From the NCBI GenBank assembly GCA_964429815.1, contig CAYSCM010000005.1:1-10856 (forward strand): DNA of 10,856 nt, written 5' to 3'. The notes beneath the pieces were generated by a model, which did not search any database, was not told the DNA's origin, and worked only from the letters and a program-made list of their open reading frames with translations. This document shows, piece by piece, positions 1-10,856 of the stretch (positions are counted from its first letter, which is position 1; each line of letters starts with the position of its first letter). A program made the translations under genes and the position numbers. The stretch comes from an uncultured Candidatus Saccharibacteria bacterium (lineage in GTDB: Bacteria > Patescibacteriota > Minisyncoccia > Phycocordibacterales > CAYSCM01).

Positions 1-62
1 CTCAATGGTAGAGCAGCTCCCTGTTAAGGAGTTGGTTGTAGGTTCGAGTCCTACCACCGGAG
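1..62 (+). tRNA. tRNA-Asn (anticodon GUU), 5'-truncated by the window edge; CCA not encoded
   Basis: D-arm GCTCAATGGTAGAGC-like at 1-14. Anticodon stem gctcc/ggagt (16-20/28-32) with 7-nt loop CTGTTAA gives anticodon GTT. Variable loop tggtt. T-arm gtagg-TTCGAGT-cctac (38-54). 3' acceptor strand caccgga plus discriminator g (55-62). Confidence 0.8.
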
Positions 63-83
63 CAGTAACACTTAGTAACACTC

Positions 84-104
84 CATGCCCGTCGGGCATG
101 TTTC
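84..104 (+). terminator. Hairpin terminator downstream of the tRNA
   Basis: Perfect palindrome catgccc-gtc-gggcatg (84-100) followed by ttt (101-103). Confidence 0.5.
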
Positions 105-146
105 GCCTCCTGCCGGCGGTGCTTCATTCCTGAGAGAATTGCCGGC

Positions 147-362
147 ATGTCTCGCGTCACTATTACGTTTTCGATCTCTTTACTCCCCGACATGGCCGCG
201 GACTTGGATCGCGTTTGCAAAGAGGAGCACCGCACGCGGTCCGAGCTAATCCGAGAGGCACTGCGACGATATTTTGCCCTTCGCACATTTTGGAAAGACA
301 AACTCGACCAGGCTCCGCTGGAGGCTTCATCGCCTCACCCACCGCGAGCTCCTGGGCGGTGA
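147..362 (+). CDS. Ribbon-helix-helix (CopG/ParD-type) DNA-binding protein, putative antitoxin or transcriptional repressor, 71 aa
   Basis: N-terminus MSRVTITFSISLLPDMAADLDRVCKEEHRTRSELIREALRRYF matches the RHH beta-strand-helix-helix pattern (T-I-T-F/L...SELIREAL). Direct repeats tgccggc at ~110 and ~141 upstream could form an operator. No partner toxin ORF lies downstream. Confidence 0.6.
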   Translation: MSRVTITFSISLLPDMAADLDRVCKEEHRTRSELIREALRRYFALRTFWKDKLDQAPLEASSPHPPRAPGR

Positions 363-682
363 ATGAATAAACGCGCGAGCTTGCAGGGATTGATTGTGGG
401 TAATCGAGGCCTATATGGCGCGCTCGGGCAAGGGATTTCTCATGGAGGTCCACATGCCTTGGAGTTCTTGGACTAAGAGCGGAAGCGGTGAATCGAAGAG
501 CAAAAGCGTCGAAGCCTCAAGAAGCTCGAGCGGAAACAGGGAGACGCACCACCTGAGCACGGCAGGAGGTGGACGCCACCACTCCGGCGGAGGCGACAGA
601 GGCAATCACACGCACGTCGTCGTTCAACACCGTGAGGGCCGCAGCACGGCCCACGCCGTCCCTCACAAGCATAATCGATAGA

Positions 683-1096
683 CTATCGGACTTGCGGAGA
701 GCCGCTGCCGCCCCTGAGCAGCGGCTCGATTTTTTTGTACTCTCTTGCTGCATCAAAAGCTTTGTACGACTGACTATATTCATGAGCGCCCTCGCAATAG
801 ACCGACACATCGAGCGCAAAATCTCTGACCTGCGAAGACAGCTGCTCAATTTCTGATATCAGAAAGAAGTAGGCCGAGAGTGGCATGTCGGTCTCGCCTC
901 TCTTGAGCTTTCTGAGCCCATACTCGAGCATGGCGCGTACGTCGATCGCGTCGACATTGAGAAATCCGATCAGCTTGGGGAGATGAGGGTTGTTCTTGTT
1001 ATCTGCCAGGAACTCGGCAAACGACTGACGCGATTCGTCAGAAAGCTTTGCTGCCACCCTTTCTTCGGCTGATGTCATGACGCGAGCATAGCACAC
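683..1096 (-). CDS. Hypothetical protein, 137 aa (131 aa if it starts at the ATG at 1078)
   Basis: The translation has protein-like composition (…KLIGFLNVDAIDVRAMLEYGLRKLKRGETDMPLSAYFFLISEIEQLSSQVRDFALD…), unlike the overlapping alternative-frame ORFs, which are R/S/A-rich. No recognisable motif. No clear SD. Confidence 0.45.
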   Translation of the reverse strand: MCYARVMTSAEERVAAKLSDESRQSFAEFLADNKNNPHLPKLIGFLNVDAIDVRAMLEYGLRKLKRGETDMPLSAYFFLISEIEQLSSQVRDFALDVSVYCEGAHEYSQSYKAFDAAREYKKIEPLLRGGSGSPQVR

Positions 1097-1199
1097 TCGC
1101 TATGAAGATCGGATTGAGCCTCCATCGCGATTGCCGTGGAGAAAAAATGGACTCAGTTCGATAGTGCGCGAGACCCCGCAGTCGAAGGTTTTTGAAAAC

Positions 1200-1379
1200 T
1201 TAGTTCGTCTCGTTTTTATTCGAGTCCATTTCGGGAGTTTGTAAGCGCTCGTGGATGCGCAGAACGACCGTTAGGTACTGACGCAGGTTATAGAGCCCCT
1301 CTTCCCTTCTCGCCTTTCTGGCTCGAGGCATGAGGCTTTGGATAAAAGCGTTCGGGTCAAACTTCTTCTTTTTGATCAT
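1200..1379 (-). CDS. Possible small basic protein, 59 aa (MIKKKKFDPNAFIQSLMPRARKARREEGLYNLRQYLTVVLRIHERLQTPEMDSNKNETN)
   Basis: ATG-initiated ORF missed by the 60-aa ORF cutoff. Lys/Arg-rich N-terminus. Same strand as, and ~100 bp upstream of, the 683..1096 ORF. No SD and no homology recognised. Confidence 0.2.
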   Translation of the reverse strand: MIKKKKFDPNAFIQSLMPRARKARREEGLYNLRQYLTVVLRIHERLQTPEMDSNKNETN

Positions 1380-1467
1380 TGCGGCACCCTACTTGATTGA
1401 TGAAGGAAAGCTACATCGGCGTGAGAATAAGGTACCGATCCGCAAGGGCTGATGAGGTGCGCCCGGT

Positions 1468-1496
1468 GGCTGCATGCTAAAATGAAGCATGCAGCC
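1468..1496. promoter_or_regulatory. Perfect 10-bp inverted repeat ggctgcatgc-N9-gcatgcagcc overlapping the start codon of the 1489 ORF (candidate operator or RNA hairpin)
   Basis: Read directly from the sequence. The right arm contains the ATG at 1489. Confidence 0.45.
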
Positions 1497-1725
1497 GTCT
1501 TCAACTTGGACCCCAGAAGAGTGGCGGGAGTTCGAAGGTAAGCTTCGCCTTCTGCCACTCGATGATCTCGCCGCTCTCTCTGGCAGGACCGGCCTTACAT
1601 TTACACGGCCCGCATCGGAGCTCACCAGAGAGGATTACATTGGCGCGCTCGACGAGTCTGACAAAACAGAGCTCTTGAAGGCGTACGACGAAGTAGTTTC
1701 CCGCCGAGGTCGACAGAACACCTAG
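1489..1725 (+). CDS. Small HeH/SAP (Rho-N-like) motif protein, 78 aa, hypothetical
   Basis: LLPLDDLAALSGRTGLTFTRPASELTREDYIGAL fits the helix-extended-helix pattern LxxLxxxELxxxAxxxGLxxxxxxxK/RxELIxxL of SAP/Rho-N/LEM domains. Protein-like composition. Convergent with doc. Confidence 0.45.
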   Translation: MQPSSTWTPEEWREFEGKLRLLPLDDLAALSGRTGLTFTRPASELTREDYIGALDESDKTELLKAYDEVVSRRGRQNT

Positions 1726-1730
1726 GTCTT

Positions 1731-2090
1731 TCACTCCTTCGCGAAGAGAAGATTTGCAATCTGGCGAATGACTGACTGGTGGTCGTCCTCCTGGATCTTC
1801 TCGATAAACACCGCAAGCTCGTCGAGCGTTGGGTTGTCGCCGCCAAAGTTCGGTGAGAGAGCGTTGACCTCACAGACGACGCTGAACACGAGACAGGCGG
1901 TGCGTTTGTTGCCGTCGGTGAACGGGTGATCTTTGATGAGGAAATAGATATACGCCACAGCCTTCTCTTCGATCGTGGCGTAGTTGGGTGCTCCGTAGTG
2001 GGCGCCCGTGATGTTCACGACGATAGACTCGACGATCTGCTGCGCCGAGACCGTCAGAGGGAATGAGACCAGCCCCTCCTTATGCAGCAA
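1731..2090 (-). CDS. doc: Doc (death-on-curing) toxin, Fic/Doc family kinase. Probable TTG start at 2090; the maximal ORF runs to a GTG at 2159
   Basis: Diagnostic Doc motif H-P-F-T-D-G-N-K-R (HxFx[D/N][A/G]NKR) in IKDHPFTDGNKRTA. N-terminal region IVESIVVNITGAHYG aligns to phage P1 Doc LIALHDANISRYGG. Starting at TTG gives a Doc-sized ~119-aa protein that overlaps the upstream ORF's stop by 11 nt. The GTG start at 2159 would overlap the upstream ORF by 80 nt. Confidence 0.85.
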   Translation of the reverse strand: MLHKEGLVSFPLTVSAQQIVESIVVNITGAHYGAPNYATIEEKAVAYIYFLIKDHPFTDGNKRTACLVFSVVCEVNALSPNFGGDNPTLDELAVFIEKIQEDDHQSVIRQIANLLFAKE

Positions 2091-2271
2091 CTCGTATACG
2101 AGGCAGACGCTTTTCGGCGGTACGAGTTGAAATGTTCTTTTTCCCGGTGTCGTAGTCACGAAGCGATTCTAAGACGGGCAGGTTCTTCTTGAGCTGCCCT
2201 TGTGCAACCTTCTCAAAGGATCCTTTTGCTGTTGTGCGGCGTTTGCTAGCCATACGGCGATTATACCTCAT
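2080..2271 (-). CDS. Putative antitoxin partner of Doc (not recognisably Phd/YefM-like). In-frame starts at TTG 2286, ATG 2271 and ATG 2253
   Basis: Small basic ORF immediately upstream of doc, whose TAA stop is embedded in the doc 5' region. It is placed by its position alone, which matches the toxin-antitoxin operon arrangement. Sequence …MASKRRTTAKGSFEKVAQGQLKKNLPVLESLRDYDTGKK…. Confidence 0.5.
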   Translation of the reverse strand: MRYNRRMASKRRTTAKGSFEKVAQGQLKKNLPVLESLRDYDTGKKNISTRTAEKRLPRIRVAA

Positions 2272-2286
2272 AATCGACACAATCAA
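2254..2286 (-). promoter_or_regulatory. Candidate sigma70-type promoter of the antitoxin-doc operon: TTGATT (2286..2281) - 15 bp - TATAAT (2265..2260), with ATG 2253 only 6 nt downstream (possible leaderless transcript)
   Basis: Hexamers read directly on the minus strand. The spacer is short (15 bp), so the call is tentative. Confidence 0.35.
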
Positions 2287-2407
2287 AAATGAAGCGACGC
2301 GGATACGATTCTAAGAGTCTAGAGTTGCATCCTTGGCTACCTAGACAATTTCTAAACGTGTGGTTGTATTCAGTTGGAGACTAACTGGTTCGAAGGGAGC
2401 AAAATCC

Positions 2408-2713
2408 ATGTCACTCGATCAGTGGCTTTTTCTAATCGGCGCAGGTTGGTGGCTCATCGTTGGAATGATCAGTACGCTCGTCAGCGAATACCGCACACAG
2501 TCCATCGTCGTGGTGATCGCCCAGATCCCGATCTGGGTTTTGATGCCATTGTGCTGCGTCGCTTGGCTAGCAAATAATTGGGCGACGAGTGAAGGCGGTG
2601 TTGCCGGTACAATCGTATTGGCCGCGATCTGCTGGCCCATTGCGGCGTTTCTCATGCATGCACTTGTCAAAGACCTTCGCGGTCATGGAGACCACGAGCC
2701 GCAGCACACCTAA
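2408..2713 (+). CDS. Small integral membrane protein (2 predicted TM helices), hypothetical, 101 aa
   Basis: MSLDQWLFLIGAGWWLIVGMISTLV… followed by IPIWVLMPLCCVAWLANNW…GTIVLAAICWPIAAFLM. GGGAG lies 10 nt upstream of ATG 2408, one of the few SD-like sites in the window. The longer ORF from 2360 lacks an RBS. Confidence 0.55.
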   Translation: MSLDQWLFLIGAGWWLIVGMISTLVSEYRTQSIVVVIAQIPIWVLMPLCCVAWLANNWATSEGGVAGTIVLAAICWPIAAFLMHALVKDLRGHGDHEPQHT

Positions 2714-2991
2714 GCACCCTTCGTCAGCGCCGTTCGCCACTGTGGTGGATGGCGCCTTCTTTTATGCCGTCCCCAACTCTTTCTCGACCTGCGTGGTAAA
2801 GTGTTTCAACAAGACGTCGAATGTTGCCTTCACGGCCATTCGAGGTGTGTCCCGAACAAGTGAGCAAACGAGAGCCGCGCGAAAGCGTGCTTCCGCATGA
2901 CCGAGCTTGCAACGACGGCAAGCCCTGCTTACCGCCGGAGTTTGATATTTTGAGCCATGATTTTGCCTACCCTTGCGGGGGGTTAAAGCTT

Positions 2992-3020
2992 TTGAAGATT
3001 CAGATAATTGGTAATATACT
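2992..3020 (+). promoter_or_regulatory. Candidate promoter TTGAAG-17bp-TATACT for the 3075 gene. An alternative -10 TATTAAT lies at 3054-3060.
   Basis: AT-rich island in a GC-rich window, with near-consensus hexamers and 17-bp spacing. Confidence 0.4.
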
Positions 3021-3074
3021 AGTCGCAAAACCGTCTTATACGGTAATTACAAGGTATTAATTTTATTTCATCAT

Positions 3075-3752
3075 ATGAGAAGAATTGCATTAATGCTTGG
3101 ATCCCTTGGGTTTCTTGCAGTAGGTAGCGTGGCGTTCGCGCAGACAGCGTCCACGACTACTAGTGGCACAACAACTGCAGCCCCCGCACAGCAGATAGTT
3201 CTGCAGATTGGCCCCACAGGCAAGGTTCTTTTGCGCGGCACCATTGATTCAGTGTCGGCGACGTCTCTCACCGTCAAGAGCTGGGGCGGTGATTGGACTA
3301 TAAACGTACCCGCGTCTGCTGGGGTCATGCCGCAGGGCGTTGCGCTCTCAAGCTTCCATCAGGGTGACTTTGTCGGAGTTCATGGAACGGTCAACCAAAG
3401 CAGCAGTTGGACCATTGACGCAACCCTCGTGCGCGACTGGACCGCGCGTCAAGCATTGAATCAAGAGATAAAGAACAATGTTCAGACGGTACATCGGGAA
3501 ATGGCAGCCGGACCGAGAACAATCCAGGGAGTCCTTAGCAACCTGAATGCGTCAGCACAGACCTTCACGCTCACATCCTCAGAGGGTACCGCTTACTCGG
3601 TTACGCTGGCTTCGGGCGCAAAACTTCTCGCTCAAAATTGGGCGACGCTTGATCTTAGCAAGGTGAGCAACGGGGATACGGTTCGCGTATACGGAACGAT
3701 CTCGGGCTCGGCAATATCAGCGACGATCTTCCGAGATGTGTCGGTGAAATAA
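3075..3752 (+). CDS. Secreted protein with two tandem DUF5666-like beta domains, 225 aa
   Basis: Sec signal peptide MRRIALMLGSLGFLAVGSVAFA|Q, then a T/S/A-rich linker. The ~85-aa module is present twice (GKVLLRGTIDSVSATSLTVKSWGGDWTINV…GDFVGVHGTV…TIDATLV and RTIQGVLSNLNASAQTFTLTSSEGTAYSVTL…GDTVRVYGTISGSAISATIF). The pattern G-V/I-…-TLTV/TFTL…GD-V-V-G matches the DUF5666 family from memory. Confidence 0.75.
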   Translation: MRRIALMLGSLGFLAVGSVAFAQTASTTTSGTTTAAPAQQIVLQIGPTGKVLLRGTIDSVSATSLTVKSWGGDWTINVPASAGVMPQGVALSSFHQGDFVGVHGTVNQSSSWTIDATLVRDWTARQALNQEIKNNVQTVHREMAAGPRTIQGVLSNLNASAQTFTLTSSEGTAYSVTLASGAKLLAQNWATLDLSKVSNGDTVRVYGTISGSAISATIFRDVSVK

Positions 3753-3772
3753 TCCGGGGTCGAAAGTAAAAA

Positions 3773-3806
3773 CAAACGACGGTCACGCGACCGTCGTTTG
3801 TTTTTT
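3773..3806 (+). terminator. Rho-independent terminator: perfect 12-bp stem caaacgacggtc / gaccgtcgtttg, loop acgc, then TTTTTT
   Basis: Read directly. Lies 21 nt after the 3752 stop. An A-run upstream makes it potentially bidirectional. Confidence 0.85.
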
Positions 3807-4102
3807 GTGGCCACGTTCAGATTAAATAGCGCAAGCTAAGATAGAGAGGCATGTGAATCTTATCCGCCCATACTTATCCATGCCCTAACGGCTTTAAATG
3901 CGCGAAGCTAAACCTTGCTGCGATAAATTCGTTAAAATAGTAAAATGAGGCATGTTTTTAGGAAAGCAACATGAGAGGAGGATCAATAAGCTGCTCTCGG
4001 GCGGCTTTTTGTTTTGAGAAACCAGGCTTCTACGCGCATGGATTCTGAGCAGTCGGTCGCAAAGCGAAGGAAGCCTTCTTCACGCGAAACGTACAGTCGA
4101 TT

Positions 4103-4111
4103 TGGTATACT
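4103..4111 (+). promoter_or_regulatory. Extended -10 element TGgTATACT upstream of the VOC gene pair
   Basis: The same TGgTATACT nonamer recurs at 6533-6541 (panD). TATACT is also the -10 of the 3075 promoter. Confidence 0.35.
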
Positions 4112-4138
4112 GCCCCGGTTACTAGTAAAAAAATCTCT

Positions 4139-4543
4139 ATGAACCCCGTCGTTCACTTCGAGATGCCCTACGAGAACCGCGATCGTATGGCGGACTTTTA
4201 TTCGCAGGCGTTCGGATGGCAGCTCAATAAGCTGGGGTCTGACATGGGCGACTACGTCGTCGCTATGACCTCGGAGCGCTCCGACCCGAGAGCCCGCCCG
4301 GAGAAGCCCGGCGTTATCGATGGTGGCTTCTTTAAGAAAAGTAAGCAAAACCAGGTGCCGGGCATCGTCGTAGCCGTCGACGATATCAAAGCCGCGATGA
4401 GGAAGGTCGAGGCTTCCGGCGGAAAAATAATCGGCGCGAGCCAAGGAAAGGAACCTGACGACATCCCCGGCGTCGGGCTCTATATCTCGATTCAAGATAC
4501 CGAGGGTAACCGCGTGGCGCTTCTTGAGCCGCGAGGAATGTAG
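4139..4543 (+). CDS. VOC (glyoxalase/bleomycin-resistance/dioxygenase) family protein, 134 aa
   Basis: N-terminal VHFEMPYENRDRMADFYSQAFGW, a beta-alpha-beta-beta-beta module start typical of PhnB/glyoxalase-like VOC proteins. C-terminal …GLYISIQDTEGNRVALLEP. Confidence 0.8.
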   Translation: MNPVVHFEMPYENRDRMADFYSQAFGWQLNKLGSDMGDYVVAMTSERSDPRARPEKPGVIDGGFFKKSKQNQVPGIVVAVDDIKAAMRKVEASGGKIIGASQGKEPDDIPGVGLYISIQDTEGNRVALLEPRGM

Positions 4544-4545
4544 CC

Positions 4546-4932
4546 ATGTTCAAAAACACTCCGACATTTACGAGCATCTCCGCTCCCGACATTGCCGCGA
4601 TGAGGGCCTTTTATGGCGACGTACTCGGACTTCCGGTCGATGAGGCTCCCGAGGGACTCACCGTCAAGCTTTTCGGCGGCGGCCACTTCTTCATCTATCC
4701 TTCAGAGGAGTACCGCGCGCCTGAACATACGGTCCTCAATTTCATTGTTCCCGATATAGACAAAGCCGTGGATAGGCTCAATGCCAAGAGCGTCACGATG
4801 GAGCAGTATCCGGAATTCCGGACCGATGAGAGGGGCATTTGCCGCAACGACGGGAAGCGGCCCGGACCCAAGGCCATCGCGTGGTTCAAGGACCCGGCAG
4901 AGCACATCCTCGCGGTGATAGAGGAAAAGTGA
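4546..4932 (+). CDS. Second VOC/glyoxalase-family protein, 128 aa. Starts 2 nt after the previous stop, so likely co-transcribed.
   Basis: AMRAFYGDVLGLPV…HTVLNFIVPDIDKAVDRL…AIAWFKDPAEHILAVIE, a VOC-fold pattern. Confidence 0.75.
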   Translation: MFKNTPTFTSISAPDIAAMRAFYGDVLGLPVDEAPEGLTVKLFGGGHFFIYPSEEYRAPEHTVLNFIVPDIDKAVDRLNAKSVTMEQYPEFRTDERGICRNDGKRPGPKAIAWFKDPAEHILAVIEEK

Positions 4933-4969
4933 CACTCGTGAGTAGAAACTTAGCAGGTAATAAAAAAAT

Positions 4970-5305
4970 ATGAAGAAATTTTTAGCACTCCTCAATGCCC
5001 CGCTCGCCTCCTTCGATAGGGCGCTCAAAATGCCAAAAGAGGATATGGGCCCGGCAATGGAGGCGTGGAACACATGGATGGCCGCGCACAAGAAAGATCT
5101 CATTGACCCGGGTGCTCCTGTCGGCAAGAGCATGAAAGTCACTCCCGCCGGAGCAGAAAAGTTCCGCAACCAGGTCGGCGGCTACATGGTGGTCCAGGCG
5201 AAATCGCTCGAGGAGGCGGCCAAACTGTTCGGTAAAGGCCACCCGCACTATATGCTCGAGAACGCATGGGTCGAGGTGACGGAAATACTGCCGATGGATA
5301 TGTAA
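4970..5305 (+). CDS. YciI-like / dimeric alpha+beta-barrel (Dabb) family protein, 111 aa
   Basis: MKKFLALLNAPL… …GGYMVVQAKSLEEAAKLFGKGHPHY…VEV resembles the YCII-related domain signature. Confidence 0.55.
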   Translation: MKKFLALLNAPLASFDRALKMPKEDMGPAMEAWNTWMAAHKKDLIDPGAPVGKSMKVTPAGAEKFRNQVGGYMVVQAKSLEEAAKLFGKGHPHYMLENAWVEVTEILPMDM

Positions 5306-5402
5306 GCACGCTCGCAGAAATTTTTTAAGCCCTTGCCCTACCCCAAACCCCTTAAAAAATTTCAGCTCGCTCCCGGCGGAAAAGATTCTAGATGCAGTAT
5401 AG

Positions 5403-5434
5403 AAAAACGCGCGGCCCAGGGGCCGCGCGTTTTG
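5403..5434. terminator. Strong bidirectional rho-independent terminator shared by the convergent YciI-like and PLP-enzyme genes
   Basis: AAAAA-cgcgcggcc-cagg-ggccgcgcg-TTTT: a 9-bp GC stem with an A-run on one side and a T-run on the other. The minus-strand gene's stop is 14 nt away. Confidence 0.85.
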
Positions 5435-5447
5435 TCGTTCACCCACT

Positions 5448-6443
5448 TTAGTCCACTACGTCGAGGATGGTCGAGTACTTGTCCGCATAGCTCTCTCCCA
5501 AATCGGGACAAACGAACGCGGCCTTGATGCTCCCATCCCTGCCGCGTAGCGCATCGAGCCTTCCTGAATCTTTCTCCTTCCGAAGAAAGTCAAGAAGTCC
5601 TACGTAGGCAAGGCCGGAACTTGGCCCTGGGCAAACGCCGAGCGCTCTGCGAAGGTCGAGGCTCGCTTGGTAGGCGCGCGAACGCTTCCCGAGCGTCATG
5701 AGGGCACCCTCGGAGATAGCGCTTCTCCAAGGGAGACGCACGAGCTCTAGGGATAGTTTGCTTTCGGCGCGAACGCCGGGCACCGGTCCCTCGTCCCCTT
5801 CCGCGCACACCACACCGACGACCTTGGTGGAAAATTCGCAAGCCCGTATGTAACGGGCAAGACCCACCACGGTGCCGCCGGTACCGACACCGGCGGCGAC
5901 CGCTGAGAGGGTTGCCTCGAAGGGGTCGAGGATCTTCGGCGCAAGGAATTTCTCGAACGCCTTCGGATTGTCGTCGTTGTCGTACTGGTCGAGGTTGAGG
6001 TATCCGGGTTCTTTGCCCTTTTCTCGCGCACGCTCGATGCAGGTAGCCTCTCCTTCACGTTCGGGAAAATCCTGGAAGCGTGCGCCGTAGAAACGCAGAA
6101 GCGCGAGCTTAGTGAGTGGTGTGTCCGAGCGCACGTAGAGCTCGACTTTGAGACCGAAGGCCGGCGCCGCGATCGCAAGCCCAAGCCCGGTGTTCCCTGA
6201 CGTACCTTCGACGATTGTATGTACGCCCTCAAGACGTCCGGCTTCATGCGCGCGAAGGAGCATGTACACCGCCGGGATGACCTTGTGCGGGAGTCCTGCC
6301 TTGTCGAACCCGAGTGCCGCAAAAATCCTGACCTGGTCCGTGATGAGTGGGTCAAACCCCGTCGGAATCCTCACCAAGGGGACGCTTCGGTTTTGGGGAT
6401 GGAGGAACTTTAAAATCCCCCCACTCCCGTTTGGCGTCTTCAT
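5448..6443 (-). CDS. PLP-dependent fold-type-II enzyme of the cysteine synthase / cystathionine beta-synthase family (CysK/CysM/SbnA-like), 331 aa from ATG 6443
   Basis: PHKVIPAVYMLLRAHEAG (PLP-Lys region). IVEGTSGNTGLGLAIAA matches the VEPTSGNTGIALA motif. QYDNDDNPKAFEKFLAPKILD matches QFxNPxNPxxHxxTTGPEI. AAGVGTGGTVVGLARYI matches the G-rich loop GVGTGGT. GGAGAG SD lies 8 nt upstream of ATG 6443. The longer ORF to 6557 would run into the panD promoter. Confidence 0.85.
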   Translation of the reverse strand: MKTPNGSGGILKFLHPQNRSVPLVRIPTGFDPLITDQVRIFAALGFDKAGLPHKVIPAVYMLLRAHEAGRLEGVHTIVEGTSGNTGLGLAIAAPAFGLKVELYVRSDTPLTKLALLRFYGARFQDFPEREGEATCIERAREKGKEPGYLNLDQYDNDDNPKAFEKFLAPKILDPFEATLSAVAAGVGTGGTVVGLARYIRACEFSTKVVGVVCAEGDEGPVPGVRAESKLSLELVRLPWRSAISEGALMTLGKRSRAYQASLDLRRALGVCPGPSSGLAYVGLLDFLRKEKDSGRLDALRGRDGSIKAAFVCPDLGESYADKYSTILDVVD

Positions 6444-6549
6444 AGTGCTCTCCGTAGTCGTTGAACGGTATGCGGCCGCGCCGCACATTCCGCCTAGAGC
6501 GTAATCCGCCCGTGCCACGCTGTCAAAGACGGTGGTATACTTTGGTGCC

Positions 6550-6927
6550 ATGCTCATAAACGTCTGTATAGCGAAGATCCATCGAGCGACTGTGACCGAT
6601 GCGGACCTCGACTACGTAGGCTCCATCACCATCGACCAAAACATCCTCGAGGCGGCCGGGCTTCGTCCTGGGCAAATGGTCCAGATAACCAATGTTAGCA
6701 ACGCCGTGCTCTGGCGGACCTACATACTCGCCGGAAAAGCCGGGAGGGGCGATATCGTTCTCAACGGCCCCCCGGCGCGCCTTTTTAAAAAAGGCGATAA
6801 GGTCATCATCCTCGGCGAGGCATATCTCGAACCCTCAGAAGTCAAAGATTCGCATCCGACCGTCGTGTTCGTCGACGAAAAAAATAAGATCATCCGCGTC
6901 GAGGAGAGCGCCTGGAAGAAGTCGTAG
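6550..6927 (+). CDS. panD: Aspartate 1-decarboxylase (pyruvoyl-dependent), PanD; alternative GTG start at 6532
   Basis: Near-full-length match to PanD: AKIHRATVTDADLDYVGSITIDQNILEAAGL…Y…GRGDIVLNGPPARLFKKGDKVIILGEAYLEPSEV…PTVVFVD. Includes catalytic K and H, the Gly-Ser self-cleavage site (VG|SITID) and the C-terminal pattern seen in Thermus-type PanD. ATG 6550 gives the canonical N-terminal length. An extended -10 at 6533-6541 suggests a near-leaderless mRNA. Confidence 0.9.
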   Translation: MLINVCIAKIHRATVTDADLDYVGSITIDQNILEAAGLRPGQMVQITNVSNAVLWRTYILAGKAGRGDIVLNGPPARLFKKGDKVIILGEAYLEPSEVKDSHPTVVFVDEKNKIIRVEESAWKKS

Positions 6928-6930
6928 GAC

Positions 6931-7542
6931 ATGTGGTGGTCACCGACCCATTGGGTGAATGTCATTTTGGCCGCTTCGGTCCCCCACCACTGGCTCATGC
7001 CGGTCTCTATCATCGCCGGCACATGGATCCTCGAAGACCTGACCACCATTCTCGTCGGCATCCTGGCCGCGGACGGACTTATCAAGATAGGAGTAGCACT
7101 CATCGCCCTTTGGATAGGCATCATCACGGGCGACTACGGCCTCTACTTCCTTGGTATGCTTGCCAAAACCCATCCGCGCATCCGGCGGTTTGTCGAACAC
7201 GAGCGGCTCCTCCCCATACGACGGCGCCTTGAGCGCAATCTGCGTGAGGTCGTCATTTCGACGCGCTTCATTCCGGGATTGCGACTCCCCACCTACGTCG
7301 CCTGCGGATTTTTCCGGATGCCGTTTTGGGAATTCGCGCAGTCGGTCGTCCTTGCAACCCTCATCTGGACCACAGGGCTCTTCGCCGTGGCGTACCTCTT
7401 CGGTCAATCGACCTCTGACTGGCTTGGTTTCTGGCGGTGGCCGATCGCGATAGGGGTGTCAGCTTTTTTCTTTTTTATGGCGAAGCGAAGAGCGAAGCGC
7501 ACTGCGTATGAAGACAACAATGAACGAACCGACCCCCGCTGA
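6931..7542 (+). CDS. DedA / SNARE-associated (VTT domain) family inner-membrane protein, 203 aa
   Basis: Multi-TM hydropathy. DedA signature …GLYFLGMLAK…STRFIPGLRLPTYVACG (R-F-IPG-R…AG). Starts 4 nt after the panD stop, so same operon. Confidence 0.85.
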   Translation: MWWSPTHWVNVILAASVPHHWLMPVSIIAGTWILEDLTTILVGILAADGLIKIGVALIALWIGIITGDYGLYFLGMLAKTHPRIRRFVEHERLLPIRRRLERNLREVVISTRFIPGLRLPTYVACGFFRMPFWEFAQSVVLATLIWTTGLFAVAYLFGQSTSDWLGFWRWPIAIGVSAFFFFMAKRRAKRTAYEDNNERTDPR

Positions 7543-8638
7543 CATAGACCGGAGATGGCATGAACTTTCGGGGCGCCTTCCCGGTGAGCCGATTTTCAGT
7601 TTTTTCGAGAATTGGCCGGGTTCCTTTTTCTACATTCCTGTCGCGGTGGCGTGGTTTTTCTACGCGCTGCGCTACCGAAGCTTCACGCTTCCGCTCCTCA
7701 GCAATCCGTCGATAGAATTCGCGGGGCTGTGCGGAGAGAGCAAGTGCGGGGTCCTCAGCCTCTTGGGATCCTCCGGAAAGGAGCGGGTAGCCTCCTACAT
7801 GCGATTTGAAAATACCACCGGGCGCGCGAGCGCGGATGAGCTCTTGGGTAGTGCCACCGCTGGCGGCCTCCGGCTCCCCTTCGTTCTCAAACCCGACATC
7901 GGACGGCGCGGCACGGGGGTGCGCATCGTGCGGACGAAGGAAGACGTCGAAGCCTACCTTGAAGCTTTTCCGCGAGGCCGCGCTCTCATCGTCCAGCGGC
8001 TTATCGAAGAAGAAGGCGAAGCGGGGGTCATGTACCTGCGCTACCCCGGCGAAGGACGGGGGAAAATCATCTCGCTTACCCTTAAGTACTTCCCTGCCGT
8101 CGTCGGCGATGGCAGAGCAAGCCTTCGGGAGCTCATTTTGCGCGATGAGCGCGCCCGCCGGCTTGCCAAGAGCTACTTCACGTACCACAAAGATTCTCTG
8201 GAAACTATCGTGCCGCGGGGGAAACGCATAAAGTTGGTTGCTGTCGGAAACCACGTGCGCGGTTCTCTCTTTCGGGATGGCCGCCCGTTCATAACGTCGG
8301 GCATGACCGACGCATTCGACAAGATCGCGCGTGAAATCCCGCATTTCCACCTTGGACGGTTTGACGTGCGCTTCGAGAAACTCTCTGACCTCGCCGTCGG
8401 AGAAAACTTCACCATCATCGAGGTAAACGGCGCCGGAAGCGAGGCGACCCACATTTGGGACCGCCGTGCGAAGCTTTTTGACTCCTATCGAACGCTCTTT
8501 GCGCATGCCAAGGCGCTCTTCGACATCGGCCTCCACTACAAACGCGAAGGCCGTAGAGCTCCCTCGTTCGGGGAAATCGCTCGGGCCTATGTCGCGGAAA
8601 AAAAACTTCTCGCTTCGTATCCCCCGCTTACGGAGTAG
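7508..8638 (+). CDS. ATP-grasp ligase (RimK / alpha-L-glutamate-ligase-like) with an N-terminal transmembrane anchor, 376 aa
   Basis: N-terminal TM helix SFFYIPVAVAWFFYAL. ATP-grasp core: LPFVLKPDIGRRGTGVRIV (K-P…G-x-G-V), ALIVQRLIEEE, and the Mg-binding IIEVNGAGSE (E-x-N motif as in RimK/Ddl). The start overlaps dedA by 35 nt. An in-frame ATG at 7520 is an alternative. Confidence 0.8.
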   Translation: MKTTMNEPTPADIDRRWHELSGRLPGEPIFSFFENWPGSFFYIPVAVAWFFYALRYRSFTLPLLSNPSIEFAGLCGESKCGVLSLLGSSGKERVASYMRFENTTGRASADELLGSATAGGLRLPFVLKPDIGRRGTGVRIVRTKEDVEAYLEAFPRGRALIVQRLIEEEGEAGVMYLRYPGEGRGKIISLTLKYFPAVVGDGRASLRELILRDERARRLAKSYFTYHKDSLETIVPRGKRIKLVAVGNHVRGSLFRDGRPFITSGMTDAFDKIAREIPHFHLGRFDVRFEKLSDLAVGENFTIIEVNGAGSEATHIWDRRAKLFDSYRTLFAHAKALFDIGLHYKREGRRAPSFGEIARAYVAEKKLLASYPPLTE

Positions 8639-10856
8639 AGAGCGTCGTTGATGACGTTGATGACGTTGATGACGTTGATGACGTTGATGACGTTTCGACT
8701 ATAACGGTGCGCGTGCTCGTCGCGGTGTTTCCCGCTGCATCGGTCGCGACGTAGTCGATAGTATGGGTGCCAGGAAGACCAGTATTGAGAGAAACTTCCA
8801 TGACAGCGACCCCATCGACGTAGGTCGTATATCCGAGGTTTTGGCTCACATTGTCGGAGACGGTGGCGCCAAGGTCGGAATACGCCTCTCCCACGTGAAT
8901 GGTGGCGGGGTTATTACCTTGTATGACGATAGTCGGCGGCGTCGAATCCAAAGAGGTTTTCGAGATACTCCCTCCCGATGATGTGCTGCTGGAACTTACG
9001 CTCAAGCTTCCTGTTGTACCTGCCGCCGCGGAGGCTGAGAGGAGTTTCACGAGGTCATCTTTCGTCACGCACACGCCGCTGACGCACAACTTTTCGACAT
9101 AGACAATGTCGGAGTGGACTTCCTTTGCGAACACGCGATCGAACACTCCGGCCGCAGCGTAGATAGCGCCGTCGAATGCATGGACGAGTAGTTGTCCGAG
9201 AGAGGAGAGCGCGTCACGAAGTTCCTGAGAGCTGTCGGAAAACGCTCCGGCTCCTGCGACGCTCGACGTTGCCGCACCGGGAGGTGCAACGAGATATGAA
9301 ATCGTCGTCGTCGGCAAAAGCGGAGCGACAAGGGCATGGAGCTCCTGGACGGCGGAGACGAGGTAGGGGGTAAAGCCCGCATAATTGAGGGCGAGCGTCC
9401 CCCAACTACTTTGATATACCAGATCGGGTGCGATCTTCTGAACTTCTTGCGCAAGAAAACCTGTGTGAGTCGGGGTTCCTGAAGCCTCGGCAAGCCAGTT
9501 ATAGGTCACGGGATTAAGGGACAAGACCGTTCCAAGTGCGGGGGCGAGCTTCTCGATATTATTTTTAAGCGTCGCATCGGACGAACAGGTAACACCGGTC
9601 GTCGGGATGATCCAACAACCGCCAGCAGCATTACCGAAGGCAGCGACGGCAGTGGCGGCGCCCACGGAAGCATTGCCAACGGAGAGAAGGGACGAGGTTG
9701 CGGTTGTTGTGCCGATACCGACACTGCCCGTGTAGTTAATCGTGATGGTCGAAGTGCTCGTCGTTGCAAAGCTATCCGAGCTCGTGGCGATGTAGAGGTT
9801 CCCGCCGTTGGAGCGTATAGACCAGTGCTTTTGGTTAGACCCTGCGCTCGGATCGGTAAGGGTAAGCTGTGGACCGGTCGAAGATGCGATTTGAAGTGCC
9901 CACTGCGGAGTCGTGGTGCCTATGCCCAAAATCCCGCTCGGGGCTATCGTAAGAGGCCCGGGGCCTGATGAGGTCGCATAGGTAGAAGGAGAGGATGTCG
10001 AGAAGTACAGAAAGCCGCCGGCATTTCTGAAGCTCCAGTGAACGTTCGTAAGGGAGGATGGGTCCGAGAGCGCAAGTTGTGCTCCGGTCGAGCTCGCAAT
10101 TTGGAGGGCCCACTGCGGTGAGGTCGTGCCGATGCCGACCTTGAGCGCTCCGGCGAGGGCGAGCGCAGTGGTATCGGTCGTCGAAGTTGCCCATTGAGTA
10201 CAGCCCGCCGCAGTGATGAGCCCATTTTTGTCCGTGCGCAGACAGGCTGTATTGGTACCCCCTAAACTTGAAAGCCAGAAATTTGTCGTTGAGGCATTCG
10301 TGCTCACAAAGTTTGTCGTGGTCGCCGAGGTGCCGGTCGCGTTCACGAAGGTGAAATTCTGGAGCGTCGTGGAGCCAGTGGCCAGAAGAGTGCTGAAGGT
10401 GCCGAGTCCCGTCGAGGTGATGTTGCCAGCGGAGAGGACGGTGGCGAAGAGATTGGTGGAAGAGGCGGTGGTTGAGAAAATGGTCGAGCTTGTGGCATTC
10501 CCCAAGGTCGTCGTGGCAAGGGTGGCGAATGAAGCGAATACGTTCGTTGAGGAAGCTGTGGTCGTAAACAACGTCGAGCTCGTGGCGTTCCCTAGTGTCG
10601 TCGTCGCCGCGTTGAGGTTGCTAGCAAAGAGATTGGTGCTGCTGGCGGTGGTCGAAAAGATGGTCGACGAGGTGGCATTCCCTAAAGTCGTGGTGGCAAG
10701 AGTGATAAAGGAAGCGAACAAGTTCGTCGAAGAGGCGGTAGTGGCAAAGAACGTCGAGCTCGTGGCATTGCCTAGAGTTGTCGTAGCCGCGTTGAGATTA
10801 CTGGCAAAGAGGTTGGTGGAGGAGGCGGTCGTTGCGAAGAAAGAGGTGCTGGTTGC
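8631..10856 (-). CDS. Large Thr/Ser/Ala-rich repetitive fibre / tailspike-like protein with a C-terminal S74 intramolecular-chaperone domain, an Ig-like (DUF5011-like) domain and a (TSS)5 tail. The 5' end (N-terminus) lies beyond the window end.
   Basis: The minus-strand frame stays open from 10856 to the TAA at 8628-8630. The apparent start at 10721 is a TTG inside a repeat, and upstream codons continue the same 30-aa repeat. 30-aa repeats ATTTLGNATSSTxFxTTASSTNLFAS… span ~10390-10856. A duplicated module IGTT(S/T)PQWALQIASSTG…W S(F/I)R(N/S)(A/N)GG(F/N)LY lies at ~9700-10140. The S74 signature CSS|DATLKNNIEKLAPALGTVLSLNPVTYNWL…GFLAQEVQKIAPDLV…GTLALNYAGFTPYLVSAVQEL (SDxxxK; cleavage Ser codon ~9579-9581) is followed by a ~160-aa chaperone body. 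PTIVIQGNNPATIHVGEAYSDLGATVSDNV…THTIDYVATDAAGNTATSTRTVIV lies at ~8694-8939. Confidence 0.85.
8647..8691. repeat. Perfect 9-bp x5 tandem repeat (gttgatgac)5 encoding (TSS)5 at the C-terminus of the fibre protein
   Basis: Read directly. Partial copies flank it (8644-8646, 8692-8694). The unit length is a multiple of 3, so copy-number change keeps the frame. Confidence 0.9.
10390..10856. repeat. Imperfect ~90-bp (30-aa) tandem repeats, at least 5 copies in an alternating two-flavour (60-aa) pattern, continuing beyond the window
   Basis: Protein-level repeats (…NLNA-ATTTLGNATSSTxF-TTASSTNLFAS-FxTL-ATTTLGNATSST…). DNA copies are recognisably similar but carry synonymous and near-synonymous differences. 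Confidence 0.8.

Follow-up and report, generated by a model that had tools for sequence, protein, structure and literature searches.

A convergent pair of small genes beside a tRNA-Asn gene in an uncultured Candidatus Saccharibacteria bacterium, a candidate toxin-antidote module

Introduction

Type II toxin-antitoxin (TA) systems such as Phd-Doc are pairs of small adjacent genes organized as a co-directional operon with the antitoxin gene first. In type I systems, a non-coding RNA acts as the antitoxin of a small hydrophobic membrane peptide. A convergent layout with overlapping 3′ ends has been described for the type I system yonT/SR6 of Bacillus subtilis (PMC5848175), and type I examples with 3′-overlapping convergent transcripts in Staphylococcus aureus have been reviewed (PMC4885055). 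In this work, a stretch of 10,856 nucleotides (nt) from an uncultured Candidatus Saccharibacteria bacterium (contig CAYSCM010000005.1, assembly GCA_964429815.1), referred to in the following as the window, was analysed. Close to the tRNA-Asn gene at its start lies a convergent pair of small genes, designated S and A, for which a toxin-antidote function is tentatively considered.

The pair shares several properties with type II TA systems. S and A are small neighbouring genes that are conserved together, S being basic and better conserved and A acidic and faster-evolving. They are found on mobile elements and in defence islands, A also occurs as an orphan, some copies of S may be decaying as toxins of TA pairs do, and A can be exchanged for a second partner, termed B. 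Unlike type II systems, S and A are convergent, they match no TA family in Pfam, NCBIfam or PADLOC, and the putative antidote has no recognizable DNA-binding domain. With type I systems the pair has in common the tail-to-tail orientation with abutting or overlapping 3′ ends, which permits antisense control, and in the window a terminator-like hairpin for S lies within the coding region of A. It differs from these systems in that S is a basic, hydrophilic protein for which beta strands are predicted, and in that a conserved gene for a protein of 131 amino acids (aa), modelled with a predicted local distance difference test score (pLDDT) of 94, is located opposite to S. The opposition of a basic protein with conserved histidines (S) and an acidic, all-helical protein (A) resembles barnase-barstar and the colicin DNases with their Im proteins. 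In the pore-forming colicins, the immunity gene is located on the opposite strand.

The S-A gene pair

Gene A (683-1078, minus strand) encodes an acidic, all-helical protein of 131 aa and is convergent with S, the stop codons of both genes being 1 nt apart. The initial annotation had reported an open reading frame (ORF) of 137 aa at this position (683-1096). This ORF exists if translation begins at the GTG at 1096; the ATG at 1078 is favoured by the gene callers and by the alignment of the homologues and is more likely the start. A word-indexed search with the 137-aa protein returned the protein itself alone. The family emerged by an exhaustive phmmer search covering 1.84 billion representatives, in which 47 further proteins were detected at E ≤ 1e-3 (48 with the query), nearly all of them 96-166 aa long. 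Sensitive searches had been suggested in the initial annotation for this ORF and for a neighbouring ORF of 59 aa; for the former they led to a family, for the latter to no family match. The alignment of the A family is characterized by the motif EYG..LP..(D)..L..YFF.LSEI..LP.E.RDFA.D.M.YCE, and the predicted structure is a helical bundle with a pLDDT of 94. No match to A was found in Pfam, NCBIfam, PADLOC or PHROG, among PDB sequences, in plasmids or in phage records, and the PDB fold matches of the module proteins are generic. Gene A is real, and the acidic helical-bundle proteins to which its product belongs form an unannotated family.

Gene S (454-681, plus strand, starting with the ATG at 454) encodes a basic, Gly/Ser/His-rich protein of 75 aa with an isoelectric point (pI) of 11.3. 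The sequence of the window copy is MPWSSWTKSGSGESKSKSVEASRSSSGNRETHHLSTAGGGRHHSGGGDRGNHTHVVVQHREGRSTAHAVPHKHNR. A GGAGG motif is located 5 nt upstream of the start codon, and comparable Shine-Dalgarno (SD) motifs are located upstream of S in the majority of the other loci examined. The gene was found by searching the contigs carrying A homologues with all small ORFs of the window, among them an ORF at 394-681 (plus strand) that had not been listed in the initial annotation. By tblastn, this ORF matches the loci L006/7 with 68% identity over 73 aa (E 4e-18) and the loci L011-14 with 38% identity over 76 aa, in both cases just downstream of the A homologue and on the strand opposite to it. In the six-frame view of L011, the S frame is the only open one, and the frames on the A strand are interrupted by stop codons. 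A profile search with S revealed 16 database proteins of 65-87 aa with E-values from 1e-32 to 2e-5. Eight residues are invariant (M1, W6, K17, G46, H52, H54, G62 and K72) and four further ones nearly so (G47, A66, H67 and R75). The AF2 model of S is a four-strand beta sheet with a pLDDT of 70, for which weak Whirly-like fold matches were obtained. Searches of Pfam, NCBIfam, PADLOC (run with the 95-aa ORF) and PDB sequences gave no match to S, and neither did plasmids or viral contigs. A match of 5 of the 17 S members to phrog_22683, a family of unknown function, had a best E-value of 8.6e-4, covered the Gly-rich loop and was taken as low-complexity noise. As the defence catalogue, PADLOC-DB v2.0.0 was used, which contains zero families matching S (95-aa ORF), A, the 59-aa ORF, a 78-aa ORF or the ribbon-helix-helix (RHH) protein described below. 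Taken together, S is a real conserved gene family.

The window copy of S is absent from the recorded gene calls of the window's population. In L006, the gene caller chose an ORF on the opposite strand (6403-6618, plus strand) over S. This ORF was considered as a co-directional gene downstream of A and rejected, since in L011-14 its frame contains stop codons, the open and conserved frame being that of S on the other strand. In L006/L007, an ACG replaces the start codon ATG of S (6655-6657 in L006) behind an intact SD motif, and the partner gene is intact. In L024, S (1611-1822) is split over two frames by a probable frameshift, again with an intact partner gene, in this case B. Possibly, these copies are attenuated or have decayed. 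Genes that, like S, are small, convergent and of odd composition are likely under-annotated in the databases.

For the analysis of the gene arrangement, hidden Markov models built from both alignments were run on all six-frame ORFs of every fetched locus. The loci L030 and L026 were added by means of a hand-built degenerate DNA pattern for S, which was scanned over the metagenome collection. A tail-to-tail arrangement of neighbouring S and A genes was found in the window, in L006/7, L011-14, L015 with the related L026, L016, L017, L018-20 and L030. L015 and L026 are members of one element family, their relaxases being 86% identical. In total, S is located beside A in 8 of 9 independent contexts that contain A. 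The one remaining context (L008-10) carries A without S and thus resembles an orphan antidote. The orientation is always convergent, with the 3′ ends between −4 and 64 nt apart, negative values denoting an overlap: 1 nt in the window, 42 nt in L006, 25 nt in L011, 64 nt in L015, 62 nt in L026, 57 nt in L016, 4 nt in L017, −4 nt in L018 and 11 nt in L030. The 59-aa ORF, which the initial annotation had paired with the 137-aa ORF, was tried as partner of A and discarded, as tblastn gave no similarity to it near any A homologue; it is S that accompanies A.

A terminator-like hairpin was read from the sequence at 699-736 (plus strand). It consists of a perfect, GC-rich 10-bp stem (699-708/718-727) followed by seven T residues (730-736), begins 17 nt past the stop codon of S and lies within the 3′ end of the A ORF. 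The RNA fold has a free energy of −22.9 kcal/mol (z −1.8), and a shorter version of the hairpin was flagged by the terminator scan. If this hairpin is used, the transcript of S would be antisense to the final ~55 coding nt of A.

The two proteins are opposite in charge, with a median pI of 4.9 (charge −6.7) for A and of 10.35 (+6.4) for S. Over eight pairs, the mean identity is 58% for S versus 36% for A; in TA systems, the toxin is usually better conserved than the antitoxin. We regard it as very likely that S-A is a genuine conserved mobile module.

A second partner of S

In the low-GC contigs L021-L029, S is arranged head-to-head (divergently) with a different gene, B, and the pair is located between ProS and MreB (e.g., 3827-4385 in L027 and 6041-6692 in L022). 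B encodes an extremely acidic protein of 88-97 aa (pI 4.2-4.4) without a Pfam match. A relationship of B to A was rejected on the basis of an hhalign probability of 8.6%. The S-B pair is hence a case of partner swapping around a constant S. The interval between ProS and S varies in content among these contigs and can hold a gene for a LigT-like 2′-5′ RNA ligase and an AAA_18 kinase-like gene.

Genomic context of the S-A pairs

The S-A pairs are found in the company of mobile and defence genes. In L015, S follows a gene for a Replic_Relax relaxase, and A ends an operon with ATPases of the type IV coupling protein (T4CP)/VirB4-like kind. Fragments of rve transposases are present in L011-14. L017 carries a large serine recombinase and the trio Multi_ubiq/Prok-E2/ThiF(E1) (4395-6508). 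A large serine recombinase is also found in L018/19, together with ParB_N, PRiA4_ORF3, DUF1232 and an RHH_1 gene that overlaps a small downstream ORF; further on, and in L018 only, genes for a CHAT protease and a bacterial gasdermin (13137-15611) follow. In L016, a Hachiman HamB helicase (2357-5461, 1159 bits with PADLOC) is located 1.4 kb away from the pair. L030 contains a GhoS-like gene and L006 a gene with a NYN domain. In the window, the pair sits beside an RHH gene and a gene for a Doc toxin. The hosts are diverse, as the G + C content of the loci ranges from 0.41 to 0.60. The S-A pair is accordingly a horizontally mobile unit which settles in mobile elements and defence-rich regions.

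RHH regulator, Doc toxin and orphan ORFs

The pair is embedded in a patch of small genes (63-2300), which the initial annotation had described as an accessory or defence islet with a regulator, a doc module and further ORFs of 59 and 78 aa. The regulator could be confirmed as a 71-aa RHH (CopG-type) DNA-binding protein (147-362, plus strand) by matches to Pfam RHH_1 (E 2.5e-10) and to a CopG-like repressor in PHROG (7.8e-7). Its codon log-odds of −0.32 are atypical compared to the core genes of the window. An RHH_1 gene is also found close to S-A in L018/L019, and the two are 46% identical over the RHH core. The protein of the window may be an orphan regulator or antitoxin-like.

Of the proposed doc module, the toxin gene was confirmed. 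It encodes a Doc-type (Fic-fold) protein of 142 aa (1731-2159, minus strand; Pfam Fic 5.8e-10; PHROG Doc-like toxin 3.8e-14) with the motif HPFTDGNKR, which fits HxFx(D/N)(A/G)NKR, so that fold and motif are shared with the toxin of Phd-Doc. The score against NCBIfam TIGR01550 (DOC_P1) is 33.3 bits and thus under the cut-off of 38.65. The length of the ORF is normal, since in the match to the PDB Doc 9vzc (E 0.006) residue 58 of the query is aligned to residue 52 of the chain. The nearest plasmid-borne matches are C-terminal Fic/Doc domains of RhuM-family proteins, and candidate models of the PADLOC system PDC-S23 match Doc over its C-terminal part only.

The antitoxin part of the module did not hold up in the same way. 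The sole antitoxin candidate upstream of Doc is a basic ORF of 57 aa on the minus strand (2080-2253, or 68 aa if translated from 2286), which shares 80 nt with Doc. Its ATG at 2253 is preceded at a distance of 6 nt by a perfect TATAAT, in a leaderless-type arrangement. The ORF has no match in Pfam, NCBIfam, PHROG, PADLOC or PDB, corresponds to no recognized antitoxin family and is not predicted by the Logan gene caller. A shorter version of Doc with a TTG start, for which the overlap would be only 11 nt, was dropped; the first Doc helix would presumably be lost, as judged from our own comparison with P1 Doc.

The 59-aa ORF (o59; 1200-1379, minus strand) is a basic, Lys-rich ORF upstream of A and on the same strand. 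It is predicted by gene callers; its 90% cluster has a single member. No match was found for it in Pfam, PADLOC, PHROG or NCBIfam, nor by tblastn in plasmids or near any A or S homologue. Its codon log-odds are 0.01, which is still the best of the six frames.

The 78-aa ORF (o78; 1489-1725, plus strand) is acidic (pI 4.8) and lies tail-to-tail with Doc, with 5 nt between the ORF ends. The description as HeH-like could not be upheld, as no Pfam match was obtained at E ≤ 1 (HeH/SAP included) and the single PHROG match is at chance level (E 0.21). Further phage matches are likewise at chance level, and plasmids gave none. The ORF was not called by the gene caller in the Logan contig L001, and its codon log-odds are marginally positive (0.05, best of the six frames). 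The tail-to-tail geometry of o78 and Doc mirrors that of S-A, and there is the possibility that o78, and not the upstream 57-aa ORF, is the partner of Doc. Both o59 and o78 are local orphans outside the S-A module.

In the divergent intergenic region of o59 and o78, a palindrome with a 14-bp stem is present (1465-1499; RNA fold −22.6 kcal/mol, z −3.0), and 2 of 200 shuffled sequences were equally stable. Its loop holds TAAAAT and its right arm the ATG of o78. It is possibly an operator over a leaderless-type promoter, or else a regulatory hairpin.

In three of the small genes, the ATG is preceded at 5-6 nt by a −10-like box and not by an SD motif, namely the 57-aa ORF (TATAAT, 2253-2275), A (TGcTATGCT, 1078-1095) and o78 (TGCTAAAAT, 1475-1491). 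This arrangement suggests leaderless mRNAs. Several core genes of the window are instead A/T-rich upstream and without an SD motif; S, by contrast, has the strong GGAGG.

The tRNA-Asn border

The window begins within a tRNA gene, of which the 3′ two-thirds are present (1-62, plus strand). It was detected with the Rfam model RF00005 (49.6 bits, E 2.2e-8, model positions 11-71), and the anticodon loop CUGUUAA contains the anticodon GUU, which confirms the tRNA-Asn named in the initial annotation. ARAGORN did not report a tRNA at 1-62, because the 5′ part is absent. Right after the tRNA 3′ end (64-82), two tandem copies of the 9-mer AGTAACACT are present (AGTAACACT-T-AGTAACACT), followed by a small hairpin, CATGCCC-GTC-GGGCATG, which together with a TTT behind it spans 85-104. 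The tandem 9-mers and the hairpin (64-104) could be the terminator of the tRNA or a scar.

The first accessory gene, RHH, starts at 147, i.e., 85 nt beyond the tRNA 3′ end. In classical tRNA-linked islands, the integrase gene is normally found inside the island beside the tRNA 3′ end and not upstream of the tRNA; in the window, the RHH gene takes this slot. Among the larger ORFs tested across the window, none has an integrase or recombinase domain of Pfam. In agreement with the initial annotation, no attR-like repeat of the tRNA 3′ end is present elsewhere in the window, neither as a 24-mer with up to 3 mismatches nor as any k-mer of at least 10 nt shared between the region 1-80 and the rest of the 10.8-kb window.

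The lower G + C content at third codon positions (GC3) that had been remarked for 683-1096 was likewise found. It amounts to 0.61 for A, compared to 0.68-0.73 in 7 of the 8 downstream reference (core) genes, the eighth (a DUF5666 gene) having 0.57, and the gap is modest. RHH, S, A, o59 and o78 lie between 0.58 and 0.66, and Doc is host-like with 0.73. The codon log-odds range from 0.12 to 0.35 in the core genes, reach 0.33 in Doc and are negative in RHH and S only. The composition shift across the patch is small.

Look-ups of the exact proteins yielded matching Logan contigs that are 100% identical and originate from two runs (SRR12313479/80). The sole match in a scan of GTDB genomes with a nearby PALP enzyme was an unrelated alphaproteobacterial locus (26% identity).

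As in tRNA-linked genomic islands and integrative elements, the accessory genes of the window begin directly after a tRNA 3′ end; unlike these, the window lacks an integrase and a flanking direct repeat, and the difference in composition is only modest. The region 63-2300 is best described as a small patchwork of addiction-type, plausibly accessory genes beside tRNA-Asn and is no demonstrable integrase-borne island. Of the islet proposed in the initial annotation, the accessory content (Doc, RHH and the mobile S-A pair) is retained, and the integration at the tRNA finds no support in the window.

Other features of the window

Further downstream, the gene for a Peptidase_S74/Ig-like surface protein of 697 aa carries repeats at both ends. 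Its 3′ end holds about five copies of the 9-nt unit CGTTGATGA (8646-8694), and at its 5′ end there are repeats of 90 nt (30 aa), which run off the window (10429-10856). These repeats are possibly features of a variable surface protein. At 7475-8638, two long ORFs of 376 aa (plus strand) and 353 aa (minus strand) overlap on opposite strands, neither of them with a Pfam match; a plus-strand gene of 372 aa from 7520 is preferred by the gene caller and by its codon scores.

Discussion

The best explanation for the patch as a whole is an accessory patchwork whose core is a mobile, toxin-antidote-like S-A module that lodged together with Doc and RHH, although we rate its chance of being correct at slightly below even. 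For the toxin-antidote mechanism of S-A taken by itself, the sequence features permit a tentative proposal, to which likewise less than an even chance is given. S would be the effector or toxin, probably acting through nucleic-acid binding, and its three best-conserved histidines may be metal-binding or catalytic. A, or B in its place, would serve as a stoichiometric protein antidote that neutralizes S by charge-complementary binding. The convergent, 3′-overlapping transcription could add antisense control of the S:A expression ratio, and the module may stabilize mobile elements and defence islands or ride along with them. In its most far-reaching form, S-A and S-B would represent an undescribed class of toxin-antidote or abortive-infection modules, in which a basic beta-sheet effector of 65-87 aa with an invariant HxH motif at its centre is restrained by interchangeable acidic helical partners. 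We consider it rather doubtful that such a class exists, and the same doubt applies jointly to protein neutralization and antisense transcription acting together in S-A and to the spread of such modules on conjugative elements and in defence islands of distant lineages.

Several observations weigh against a toxin-antidote function. The convergent order is atypical for type II TA pairs, and no PADLOC model matches S or A. With a pLDDT of 70, confidence in the model of S is only moderate, and the fold matches obtained with it are weak. Co-evolution of S and A is weak, their distance matrices being only weakly correlated (Mantel r 0.41, p 0.06). The analysis covered only about 12 contexts, and those that were fetched through S or A are biased towards having them. 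The location of the S-B pair between the housekeeping genes ProS and MreB suits a non-selfish cellular role equally well. Finally, all mechanistic steps of S-A are inferred.

Two other functions of the pair were weighed against a toxin-antidote role. S-A could be a dedicated anti-phage system of the abortive-infection type, in which infection would release or activate S. Its proximity, within a few kb, to Hachiman HamB in L016, to the Multi_ubiq/E2/E1 genes in L017 and to CHAT and gasdermin in L018 speaks for this, as does the Doc toxin near the pair in the window. Such guilt by association is weak with three defence neighbours only, several of the contexts are conjugative or transposon-like instead of defence islands, and neither protein has a PADLOC match. 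The absence of S from viral contigs and of A from phage records leaves no link to phages in either direction, and a dedicated defence function is considered unlikely. A non-toxic role, in which mobile elements and some chromosomes would employ S as a small basic nucleic-acid-binding or stress protein and A or B as the acidic chaperone or regulator of S, is given a similarly small chance. DNA processing in conjugation and nucleoid or ribosome association are conceivable examples, improbable to the same degree. The position of S after the relaxase gene and of A at the end of the operon with the ATPases of the type IV secretion system in L015/L026 would fit such a role, as would the weak Whirly-like fold matches. 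The S-B pair of the low-GC lineage is stable between ProS and MreB, a site that favours a harmless nucleic-acid-binding function over dedicated abortive infection. The patchy spread over very different hosts and the company of recombinases, transposases and defence genes, however, suit a selfish module better, and a decayed S next to an intact partner is more easily explained if S is costly.

The origin of the patch can also be explained in other ways than by a patchwork around a mobile S-A module. The segment 63-2300, or a longer one, may have entered the 3′ end of tRNA-Asn by site-specific insertion, as a classical island whose integrase was lost or lies outside the window. The start of the patch 85 nt past the tRNA 3′ end, its accessory-type content and the GC3 and codon scores of RHH, S, A, o59 and o78, which are somewhat below those of most downstream genes, are in line with this. 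The compositional shift is small, though, and the codon usage of Doc (GC3 0.73) is fully host-like. Moreover, no sizeable ORF of the window has an integrase or recombinase domain, the usual integrase position is filled by RHH, and the 10.8 kb contain no repeat of at least 10 nt of the tRNA 3′ end; such an island is hence judged improbable. Still less credit is given to the assumption of an ordinary, lineage-specific chromosomal stretch in which small orphan ORFs, some of them not real genes, happen to follow a tRNA. It would account for o59 and o78, which have no detectable homologues and codon scores near zero, and for the upstream antitoxin of Doc being only a candidate. For S, A, RHH and Doc it is largely refuted by family-level evidence for each of them and by the recurrence of the S-A linkage in eight independent contexts.

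Significance

Within the window, the gene grouping is corrected, as S (454-681) and A (683-1078) replace the pair of the 137-aa and 59-aa ORFs. The S-A module comprises only ~650 bp, and its architecture is easily missed, as seen in the gene calls of the window's population and of L006; searches for TA and defence systems that rely on co-directional operons would overlook it. If the toxin-antidote or defence function of S-A is true, the known addiction and defence systems would gain two protein families without recognizable relatives, together with an unusual architecture of convergent genes with abutting stop codons.

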